Virus record (IMG/VR): IMGVR_UViG_2839610755_000005
DNA: 43,830 bases
Direction: 5' to 3' (one strand)
Source of the DNA: a virus
Taxonomy: Duplodnaviria > Heunggongvirae > Uroviricota > Caudoviricetes
The first letter of the stretch is position 1; the number at the start of each line of letters is the position of its first letter. Made by a program: the position numbers. Of the stretch, positions 24,001 through 27,000 are shown in pieces.

Positions 24001-27000
24001 GAAGGTCGCGAATCTCCAGCGGGTCGAGCAGCTTTGTGTTGTGGGAAATAGCCAGGGCAGTAACAGCAGGCAGTTCTTCAGCTCGTGCGATATGTAATGC
24101 CTGAAGTTCTTCCCGTGAAACGTGCGTTACCGGTTTTTCGCTGCCATGTTGCGCAAGCCAGCGAATGGGCAGTTCCTGACCGGAAATCGGCAGGAGCATA
24201 TTATCCTCAATCTCAGCCATGTCTTCGCCATTGACGTTGGTATTGTCAGTGCTGGCTGGTTTGTCCTGAACTGAGGGGGAAGGCGCTATAAATATCATTG
24301 TGATGCCATCTTCTCCGCCTTTTTCATAGCGGTTGCAGAATTCAGTATCGAACACACCTTCAGGCGGCAGGTCATTAACAATGGGCAAATTCACGCGAAC
24401 AGGTTTTTTGAAATCCTCTTCGTCAAATCCAGCATCGTCCATTGCGACAACACCCCGTGATATTGCAACCGATAATTTTTTTGCTGTGCGCCAGTAAAAA
24501 CCGCCTTTAATCCCAAGGCGTTTTCTGACTTTGTCATTTTTGGCTTCGTAATACAGTGCAATTTCTTCTTTATCAGTGCTCATTGATAAACCTCATAACT
24601 ATTTTAAGGTTGTACGAATCCCTGCTATTGCTGGCATGCTTAATCAACGGGTATGGCGTTAATACGGCTGGCGGGTTATCCAGCCGGTATTTCGTTATTC
24701 AGGTACAGCGATACTTTGTTTAACGGGAGACATTCACCGGAAATTTTTTGCTCGTCTCTTGCCTGATGGCAGGATTCTTTACTGGCATAAATTCCGGTAA
24801 TCACATTCTGTGGCTCACCTGTTATAAGAAAAACCGTCATCATCAGTGCAAACGCTGAACTCACTGCTGCCCTCCGAAAATGCCAAGTTCAAGAAGGGCA
24901 ATTCTGGAGAGTATGGAATTATCATTGAGAAGATAAGGCTCATATTTTCTCATCCTGATGGCGTCTTCAGTAAACTCCCGGTTACTGAGCAGAATACCAA
25001 TATTAAAACACCCTTCAGACGTATTAACGTTTGGTAGTGACGTTTCCATTATCGCGTCCTCAACAATGAATTTTGTGATGCGGTGCCTGGTGCCTCCAGG
25101 TGACGTTAACCAGTTAACAATTAACGCCGGATACAGAGAATCCACCCATAACACTGTTTTTGGTTTTAACTGTTCCGCGTGCGCTCAGCCGCATTCACCA
25201 CATCACAAAATTCACTTTAAAAAGGGCGGCAGAGCAGTCACGGAGTAAAACTGATACCGCCAAACGTCACCAGAAAATTGATAACAGAGGGCGTTGCAGC
25301 GGGGTTGTCACTTAAGCGTATGGTCAGCCTGACAACCCGGTGTCCTCAAGGGGAAGGAATAACCCCGCCATACTTACCGCCGCGCCATTTCGCGGATTGC
25401 CACAACCAGAAGCGCACGGTCGAAGAAATTTAACGGCAAGACTTATATGCAAAGGGATCTCGCCGTGCGCTTTCGTGTTATGCCCTGACTTTTCAGGGTA
25501 AATTAACCTGTGGAAACCTGTTTTTACTGGCGCTAATCAGTTAGCGTTTCTGGCTAACCAGCGATGCGCGGCAGCTTCGGTTTTAAACGTTTTACTTTTG
25601 GTATACGTCATCGCGGTAAACGTGCCGTCCTGATTGGGAAACACGCCACATACCAGAGATTCGTTGTTGCCAAGATTGAGCGTATCCATGTTGACCTCAT
25701 TTGCCCTTAACGCCGGGGGGGGCGGAACTAAGACCTGTCGCACCGTTGTGCTTTGATGGGATATATTGTTCTCTTAAGATGAACATATGTCAACATTGTG
25801 AATGCGCAAGAGGCAAAAAAAACCGCCTTCCGGCGGTATTGTTTTGTAAAATAAAGAATTATTTTTGTCGCGTTATTGGGTCAACGTATTCTGAGTAAAA
25901 TTCGGTCAGTTTTTGAAGGCGCATTTGAAAAGCTGCCAGCATATTTCTACGCTCTACAGGTGGCAGGTTTCTGTAAACATCAAGCAGGGCTTTCTCATCA
26001 TCATCAAGCGCCTCTCTGTTTGTATCTTCTTTTCCTGTCAGTAGCCAGGAAAGGGAAACATTTGTCGCTTCTGCAATTTTGGCTGCGGAATCTTTACTGA
26101 TTGTCCCTCTTTTTTTCCAGGCGTTGACTGATGAGCGTCCTACACCAGCGATGCGCGCTAAATCTGAACCGCTTAAATGATGCTGTTGCGAGATCGTATC
26201 TAACCTTTCTGCCAGCGGGGTGTCGTATTGCTTTTTTCTCATGTCCATTTAGCAATTATAACCGTTCAGTGAACACTAACAATTCCTCGTAGTGTTGACT
26301 TATGTTCTCTTTAAGTGAACAATGTTGTGGCTGATTGAATTGGAGGTTGTATGACAGCATTGGACAAGGCAATAAAGATTGCTGGTGGTATTCGTCCGCT
26401 AGGGCGTGCAATAGGGGCTTGGCCGTCTCAAATACACAAATGGGCAAATGAATACAATGGTCGAGTGCCGACAGGGGAGCGGGTTCGTCAAATTTATATT
26501 GCAACTGGGGTGACTCCTCATGAATTGCGACCAGATTTATATCCGAATCCAACCGACGGGTTGCCTGCTGGAGATAAGGCTAACACACAAAATACACCGG
26601 AGTTGATTCATGAAAATCAAGCATGAACACATCCGCATGGCGATGAATGCCTGGGCGCGTCCTGATGGCGAAAAAGTTCCAGCAGCTGGAATAACCCAGG
26701 CTTATTTTGAGTTGGGTATGACGTTCCCAGAACTGTATGACGACAGCCATCCGGAAGCCCTGGCTCGCAATACCCAGAAAATTTTCCGCTGGGTAGAGAA
26801 AGACACCCCTGATGCTGTTGAAAAAATGCAGGCTCTGTTACCGGCGATCGAAAAGGCGATGCCGCCTTTGCTGGTGGCCCGTATGCGCAGCCACAGTTCT
26901 GAATATTACCGTGAGATCGTCGAACGGAGGGATCGGCTGGTGAAGGATGTCGATGATTTTGTTGCGTCAGCGGTTGTTTTGTATGACCAGATGAATCGCG

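Follow-up and report, generated by a model that had tools for sequence, protein, structure and literature searches.

Escherichia coli K-12 carries on its cryptic prophage Qin a small module, dicBF, that inhibits cell division by two routes. DicB binds MinC, which is thereby taken to the septum via ZipA, and division is blocked; the same protein has a ManYZ-linked effect in phage exclusion. The small RNA DicF represses ftsZ and other mRNAs (PMC5069750). An earlier note on the stretch of viral DNA considered here (43,830 nucleotides, hereafter the window) described a Qin-like module of this kind, and suggested that the diverged C-terminus of its DicB may alter partner specificity. The question is whether the module of this locus is a standard one, or whether its DicB has become a functionally different protein.

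The first answer is very probably the right one. What the window holds appears to be a dicBF module of the standard kind, placed in the early-left (P_L-type) operon of an E. coli O157:H7 prophage that is lambdoid and sits at ompW, and the class to which its DicB belongs would, with the same high probability, have arisen by old divergence and mosaic recombination, with the junction inside dicB itself. The finding of the earlier note is correct, already known, and ordinary.

A lambdoid prophage and its probable early-left operon

Positions 24600-25800 of the window are present at 100% identity in many O157:H7 chromosomes. Strain F8092B is 99.96% identical to the window across positions 2654-43830, the sole large difference being one IS insertion in the window. 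This insertion accounts for the 7289 mismatches that arise when the F8092B annotation is mapped onto the window by position. Annotation of the window shows two tandem prophages, and the dicBF module lies in the one whose int and xis genes adjoin a remnant of ompW. The int, xis, exonuclease, replication, lysis, and terminase genes of this prophage are all intact. Judged by its sequence, the prophage that carries the module is lambdoid and has ompW as its integration site in E. coli O157:H7.

The relevant genes follow each other on the minus strand in the order repressor, terminator-like hairpin, promoter-like site, ydfA-like gene, DicF, dicB, ydfD-like gene, exonuclease, xis, and int. The position of DicA is occupied by a CI-type helix-turn-helix repressor (25859-26248, minus strand; Pfam Phage_CI_repr and HTH_3; a helix-turn-helix protein in RefSeq). 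Since this repressor is only 26% identical to K-12 DicA, and is of a different immunity type, the locus is best described as a Qin-like module in a non-Qin prophage. Matches to DicA and DicC by tblastn are at noise level only in the window, which does not have the DicA/DicC immunity of Qin proper. Neither is the full ydfABC-dicF-dicB-ydfDE set found at the Qin chromosomal site, as int adjoins the ompW remnant, and counterparts of K-12 YdfB and YdfC are found nowhere in the 43.8-kb window. The earlier note was right to call the module Qin-like, but the prophage that carries it is not Qin.

Consensus scans place a terminator-like hairpin with a T-run 3' of the repressor gene (25822-25837, minus strand), followed by a P_L-like promoter that would be the analogue of dicBp (TTGACA-17-AACAAT; 25765-25793, minus strand). 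Within this promoter, at 25767-25785, is an operator-like palindrome, TGTTC-N9-GAACA. A second copy of the palindrome (26303-26321) lies within a P_R-like promoter that faces a cro-like gene (26295-26323, plus strand); two copies are thus present in the 43.8-kb window, compared to 0.08 expected. The P_L-like and P_R-like cassettes flank the repressor gene as inverted copies of each other (I1: 31 nt, 84% complementary). The pair has the look of a classical P_L/P_R arrangement, which would make dicBF part of the early-left operon and subject to the prophage's own repressor, whose binding we infer.

The first gene of the operon is ydfA-like (DUF1391; 25537-25689, minus strand), with 84% identity to K-12 YdfA and a match to PF07151 of 101.9 bits (gathering score 27.3). 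At the other end of the module, next to xis and int, is an intact exonuclease gene of 814 codons (22139-24583, minus strand), with the Pfam domains Exonuc_VIII and Rv2179c-like exonuclease. It is the counterpart of the K-12 pseudogene ydfE. A blastn search with the DNA of K-12 ydfE found nothing in the window; with 98.7% identity, the K-12 gene corresponds to the 5' end of the exonuclease gene of phage Tritos. The window exonuclease appears to be another mosaic variant than that of K-12.

DicF and the conserved block

The DicF RNA that the earlier note had recognised on the minus strand (25224-25276) is borne out by Rfam, where a miss of the DicF model at this place had been named as the result that would speak against it. 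RF00039 matches 25224-25275 over its full length (model positions 1-52 of 52) with 76.7 bits and an E-value of 2.5e-15, the gathering score being 48. All 53 nucleotides, including the single-stranded 5' pairing region, are the same as in K-12 dicF (b1574; 53/53). The predicted fold has a minimum free energy of -22.2 kcal/mol (z -3.84) and ends with a GGCGG/CCGCC 3' stem followed by UUUUU, a stem-loop and U-run that have the form of an intrinsic terminator. For pairing of DicF with a PerC/Pch-like gene that the prophage also carries (41150-41464), no evidence was obtained: by a crude estimate, the duplex energy of -42.6 kcal/mol is equalled or bettered by 25% of random 240-nt windows.

Upstream of DicF is the leader of its precursor (25277-25482, minus strand), which is 96% identical to K-12 across the 154 nt 5' of DicF. 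It forms a long hairpin at approximately 25401-25482, and the z-score of the folded 461-nt stretch is -5.5. In K-12, RNase III and RNase E release DicF, and DicA controls dicBp. When the K-12 data are transferred by coordinate, the 5' end made by RNase III in the 190-nt K-12 DicF species would have its equivalent at about 25413, in the 3' arm of the hairpin. A 42-aa open reading frame in the leader (25324-25452) was rejected as a gene; it has no Pfam match, and the region is conserved as an RNA precursor.

The spacer between DicF and dicB (25050-25223, minus strand) is 99% identical to K-12. It contains an in-frame upstream extension of the dicB frame, which gives a 97-aa open reading frame starting at GTG 25154. 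At 174 nt, the spacer has the same length in the window, K-12, a PPompW prophage (LC567822.1), and phage Tritos. In the window ydfA and DicF are 261 nt apart, versus 719 nt in K-12. Identity, integrity, and arrangement of the parts are directly established, and the DicF precursor, DicF, and the spacer are essentially K-12 sequence.

Conservation of this kind is confined to a short block. Relative to K-12 Qin, identity is 90-100% from approximately 25430 down to approximately 25005, and 45-70% on either side. The block, some 430 bp long, takes in DicF itself, the leader of its 190-nt precursor on the 5' side and, on the 3' side, the spacer and roughly 15 codons at the start of dicB; a mosaic junction lies in dicB near codon 15 (about 25005). 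Comparison of the same four loci (window, K-12, PPompW prophage, and Tritos) gives an identity of 96-99% for the 154 nt of leader 5' of DicF, 98-100% for DicF, 97-100% for the spacer, and 91-100% for dicB codons 1-15. In dicB codons 36-62 and ydfD, loci of the same class are 89-100% identical, and those of different classes 51-62%.

An exact scan for the DicF core, with one genome per species, found eight loci: four in Escherichia/Shigella records, three in metagenome bins, and one chance match (L008). The three metagenome bins are probably mis-binned.

It is possible, if somewhat doubtful, that the module owes its retention chiefly to a regulatory role domesticated by the host, rather than to a function in the phage lytic cycle, by way of DicF action on ftsZ, xylR, pykA, manX, and, in enterohaemorrhagic E. 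coli (EHEC), pchA and stx2. Selection on the host side would then explain why the 430-bp block is nearly invariant amid diverging surroundings: it is 96-100% identical across K-12 Qin, the window, PPompW, and Tritos, where the flanks are 51-61% identical. Part of the query is matched in 4719 of 5426 E. coli genomes, and a review links the four dicF copies of EHEC to the activation of pchA and the repression of stx2. DicF copy number has been tied to virulence regulation in EHEC as well. However, the block occupies the same early-operon position in the sequenced phages Tritos and mEp460, and the window prophage has its phage genes intact, from int, xis, and exonuclease to replication, lysis, and terminase. 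An abrupt drop from about 100% identity to less than 60% is what mosaic recombination usually leaves in lambdoid phages, and as such is not proof of host selection. Moreover, the host and phage roles are not mutually exclusive.

For a standard early-left dicBF module, all steps of the mechanism are carried over by homology with K-12 work. The CI-type repressor of the prophage would keep the promoter 5' of the ydfA-like gene off. Derepression would give rise to a single transcript of ydfA, the DicF precursor, dicB, ydfD, exonuclease, xis, and int, from which RNase III and RNase E would excise the 53-nt DicF; together with Hfq, DicF would pair with ftsZ and other mRNAs. Read-through past the DicF terminator would permit translation of DicB, which would bind MinC, direct it to the septum, and prevent the Z ring from forming. 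The product of the ydfD-like gene may be a small protein of the lysis type. Several observations count against this scheme: the promoter is separated from dicB by the DicF terminator, the full-length transcript was undetected in K-12 Northern blots, ydfB and ydfC are missing, residues 36-62 of DicB share only 41% identity with K-12, and the AlphaFold models of the two kinds of DicB differ.

Two allele classes of DicB

The dicB gene (24861-25049, minus strand) starts 174 nt 3' of DicF and encodes a protein of 62 aa, which matches PF05358 along its entire length (residues 1-62 of 62) with 115.7 bits (gathering score 27), compared to 136.8 for K-12 DicB. The identical O157:H7 sequence is named 'cell division inhibition protein DicB' in RefSeq (gene dicB; WP_000450222.1) and lies between DUF1391 and DUF1482 genes. 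The latter is the ydfD-like gene (24676-24864, minus strand), which has a GTG start and a 4-nt overlap with the dicB stop; its product shows 47% identity to K-12 YdfD and matches PF07358 with 53.8 bits (gathering score 25), where K-12 YdfD scores 91.1 bits.

The earlier note had read this part of the locus well: a ydfA-like gene lies upstream and a ydfD-like gene follows dicB, and the dicB homologue does have a conserved N-terminal and a diverged C-terminal half. In total, 36 of 62 residues (58%) are identical to K-12 DicB, and they are unevenly distributed, with 25/35 (71%) in residues 1-35 and 11/27 (41%) in residues 36-62.

This divergence is not peculiar to the window. In a large protein collection, 131 DicB relatives were found, all with PF05358 and some named from Salmonella, Citrobacter, and E. 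albertii, and the aligned sequences fall into a few C-terminal types. The K-12 type ends in ...RK[QH]ERELLNKICIVSMLARLRLMxKGCxQ, and the window type, which is marked by Pro38, in ...MRKYEPYLLNDNSILSRIALLELGIFGxQQ; a third type is a Citrobacter-like variant of the window type. The K-12 and window classes are discrete, with few intermediates among the aligned relatives, and there are natural chimeras of the two in both directions (P0030 and P0032 versus P0067 and P0070). At a coverage of at least 80%, the window-type dicB-3'/ydfD block is present in 1018 of 5426 complete E. coli genomes (about 19%) and the K-12 type in 3948. Strains of O157:H7 carry both allele classes. Synonymous divergence (dS) between the classes is saturated; within the window-type class, the estimated dN/dS is about 0.17 for dicB and 0.33 for ydfD, which shows a pattern of purifying selection.

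On these comparisons, the window DicB belongs to the second of two common classes of allele, which is already annotated and not unusual. In fact, the class has been handled experimentally. The dicB primers of an O157:H7 study encode METLLPN... and ...GIFGERQ*, the ends of the window type, and there a dicB of this class was deleted, quantified, and treated as DicB (PMC6915034). The two-class structure of DicB and the recombination junction inside the gene were not found explicitly stated in the literature searched; this is a minor descriptive point.

An alignment of 41 full-length DicB sequences has 18 invariant columns (M1, L5, P6, N7, N9, T10, S11, G13, F15, G18, F26, D29, A30, I31, K35, E37, S48, and A51). 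The window DicB keeps all 18 of these residues, as well as the nearly invariant L40, L41, and I46. Mutagenesis of K-12 DicB has shown that the N-terminus, including L5, is essential, that the loss of the last 8 residues is tolerated, and that the loss of 12-20 C-terminal residues abolishes lethality (PMC4967827).

The single-chain AlphaFold model of the window DicB has helices at residues 11-22, 24-36, 38-43, and 46-54, and folds back after Pro38 (pLDDT 79.8, pTM 0.58). From approximately residue 55 the tail is disordered in the model, which agrees with the K-12 deletion data. A K-12-type allele from the same alignment, modelled as a single chain, has one long helix at 24-60 (pLDDT 77.1, pTM 0.44). 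The two models suggest a possible conformational difference between the classes, linked to Pro38, with support too weak for a functional claim. A sequence search of the PDB and a Foldseek search with the DicB model gave no meaningful match, that is, neither a solved structure nor a fold neighbour, and for this reason no structural inference is drawn on how DicB binds its partners.

Could the C-terminal part (Pro38, the NDNS turn, and the GIFGxQQ tail) make window-type DicB functionally distinct by changing its partner? The protein might then have a septal target other than ZipA, a different effect on ManYZ-linked phage exclusion, or no need for MinC, and the dicB copies of O157 would be non-redundant. 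Such a change, in any of these variants, is improbable. It draws on the 41% identity of residues 36-62 together with saturated dS, the discreteness of the classes, the different tertiary arrangement of the AlphaFold models, the presence of both classes in O157 genomes, and the K-12 lethality data, in which the deletions of 12-20 residues mark the C-terminal region as one that matters. However, the most divergent part, the last 8 residues, is the part that K-12 DicB can dispense with, and the hydrophobic skeleton is kept, along with invariant E37, S48, and A51 and the three nearly invariant residues. Chimeras in both directions suggest that the halves are interchangeable, and the window class is under purifying selection. 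The difference in AlphaFold models comes from single chains with a pTM of 0.44-0.58. MinC and ZipA are core proteins that hardly vary among E. coli, and so there is no divergence of a partner for DicB to track. The balance leans against the proposal of the earlier note that the C-terminus alters partner specificity.

That the dicB and ydfD-like genes are decaying, functionless relics beside a DicF that alone is functional is scarcely credible: their Pfam scores are below those of K-12 (115.7 versus 136.8 bits and 53.8 versus 91.1 bits) and a terminator lies 5' of dicB, but both genes retain complete open reading frames, the overlap of 4 nt and the spacer of 174 nt have been kept, dN/dS within the class is 0.17 and 0.33, and the block is intact in 1018 genomes.

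For the locus as a standard dicBF module with a DicB of the second class, the importance is small beyond correct annotation, DicF and DicB being textbook examples of division inhibitors encoded by prophages. It is mildly useful to see DicB as two discrete, recombining classes, with the junction inside the gene beside the near-invariant 430-bp DicF block, and to note that nearly all DicB biochemistry has been carried out on the K-12 class only. If the classes were not equivalent, which is unlikely, the dicB copies of EHEC would represent distinct activities and not redundancy, and the junction in dicB would be a point of domain swapping.

Comparison with known systems

That different O157:H7 prophages carry multiple dicBF loci was already reported in 2016 (PMC5069750), and four dicF copies were described in EHEC afterwards. 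The window can be placed among several relatives. The dicBF operon of the K-12 Qin (Kim) cryptic prophage has the same DicF (53/53) and the same order of ydfA, dicF, dicB, ydfD, and exonuclease; as in the window, the upstream repressor points in the same direction, and a terminator and a promoter lie ahead of ydfA. The Qin operon differs in having DicA as its repressor and in the presence of ydfB and ydfC. Its DicB and YdfD belong to other allele classes, to which the window proteins are 58% and 47% identical, respectively. The exonuclease, xis, and int genes are truncated by IS2 in K-12, whereas they are intact in the window, whose prophage is at ompW and not at the Qin site.

The PPompW prophages of Shiga-toxin-producing E. 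coli (for example LC567822.1) have in common with the window the ompW site, the int/xis side, and an identical DicF. Their DicB and ydfD are of the window allele class, with 89-93% nucleotide identity. In contrast to the window, PPompW has immunity of the DicA/DicC type, and the stretch from its repressor to DicF holds other small genes, ydfC among them, in place of ydfA; the exonuclease is frameshifted in the LC567822.1 record.

The layout of the early-left operon in the phages Tritos and mEp460_ev081 is that of the window, and their records carry annotations for DicF and dicB. Tritos differs in that its DicB is of the K-12 type (100% identical to K-12), as is its YdfD. The order of repressor, small genes, dicF, dicB, ydfD, exonuclease, xis, and int is common to the PPompW prophages and Tritos.

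A more distant parallel is provided by Kil of phage lambda and KilR of the Rac prophage. Both are small products of a P_L operon that block assembly of the FtsZ ring on derepression, and in position and logic they resemble DicB. Kil has no sequence relationship to DicB, and its action is ZipA-dependent according to one report (PMC3961180). The two proteins also differ in their route to the same end: lambda Kil targets FtsZ and ZipA themselves, whereas DicB works via MinC.

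Control region of the repressor gene

The CI-type repressor gene (25859-26248, minus strand) is flanked by two copies of a promoter/operator cassette, one on each side of the gene (25765-25793 and 26295-26323), which are inverted relative to each other. Both copies conform to the consensus TTGAC[AT]-17-AACAAT, with the palindrome TGTTC-N9-GAACA inside; across the whole 43.8-kb window, this palindrome was found nowhere beyond the two cassettes. Judged from sequence, the cassettes constitute a predicted P_L/P_R pair, of an immunity type distinct from DicA/DicC.

Insertion and effector genes in neighbouring regions

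Relative to the O157:H7 strain F8092B, the window has an insertion of ~1.3 kb at about 1344-2653. At 2202-2318 it contains an ALIL pseudoknot, a structure that serves IS3-family elements as their frameshift signal. The insertion is located within gpJ, a tail gene of the neighbouring prophage; this gene is already frameshifted in F8092B. Between the two tandem prophages, at about 8200-17300 (approximate coordinates, transferred from the locus L003), the type III effector genes nleA, nleG, espM1, and DUF1076/NleG-like are clustered. Remnants of IS66, IS630, IS256, and IS3 are scattered among them, along with a degraded integrase.

DicF in other bins and accompanying RNAs and regulator

The scan of species-representative genomes with the DicF core also found DicF in metagenome bins (L010, L011, and L012) labelled Veillonella parvula, Collinsella sp., and 'Proteobacteria bacterium'; L010 carries a K-12-type dicB as well. 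These are probably mis-binned Escherichia prophage contigs.

The prophage that carries the dicBF module has two further Rfam matches in its late region: STnc100 (36807-37007, plus strand; 150 bits) and, 3 nt past the end of the STnc100 match, AgvB, a sponge sRNA against GcvB that lies on the other strand (37010-37071, minus strand; 96.5 bits). It also encodes a 104-aa PerC/Pch-family regulator (41150-41464, plus strand). The pchA mRNA is a reported DicF target in EHEC; complementarity between DicF and this PerC/Pch-family gene was not above background in a crude duplex-energy test.

Reading frames and toxin-antitoxin pair compared with K-12

The 814-aa exonuclease (22139-24583, minus strand) is a mosaic in its own right. 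It shares 64% identity with the enzyme of the Escherichia phage Tritos over the C-terminal 515 aa, and its N-terminal ~300 aa have no relationship to that enzyme at the threshold of the comparison. In K-12, the pseudogene ydfE is a truncated 5' end of a Tritos-type exonuclease gene (98.7% identical).

The dicB frame is open in phase up to a GTG at 25154, giving a 97-aa ORF (24861-25154, minus strand), and the upstream extension falls within the DicF-dicB spacer, which is 99% conserved. K-12 shares this extension, and translation of DicB there begins at an internal in-phase start.

A sok antitoxin RNA (31706-31880, plus strand; 111.7 bits) adjoins a hokD-type toxin gene, and the two form a type I toxin-antitoxin pair within the prophage. 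The K-12 prophage Qin likewise carries a sok/hokD-type type I toxin-antitoxin pair.
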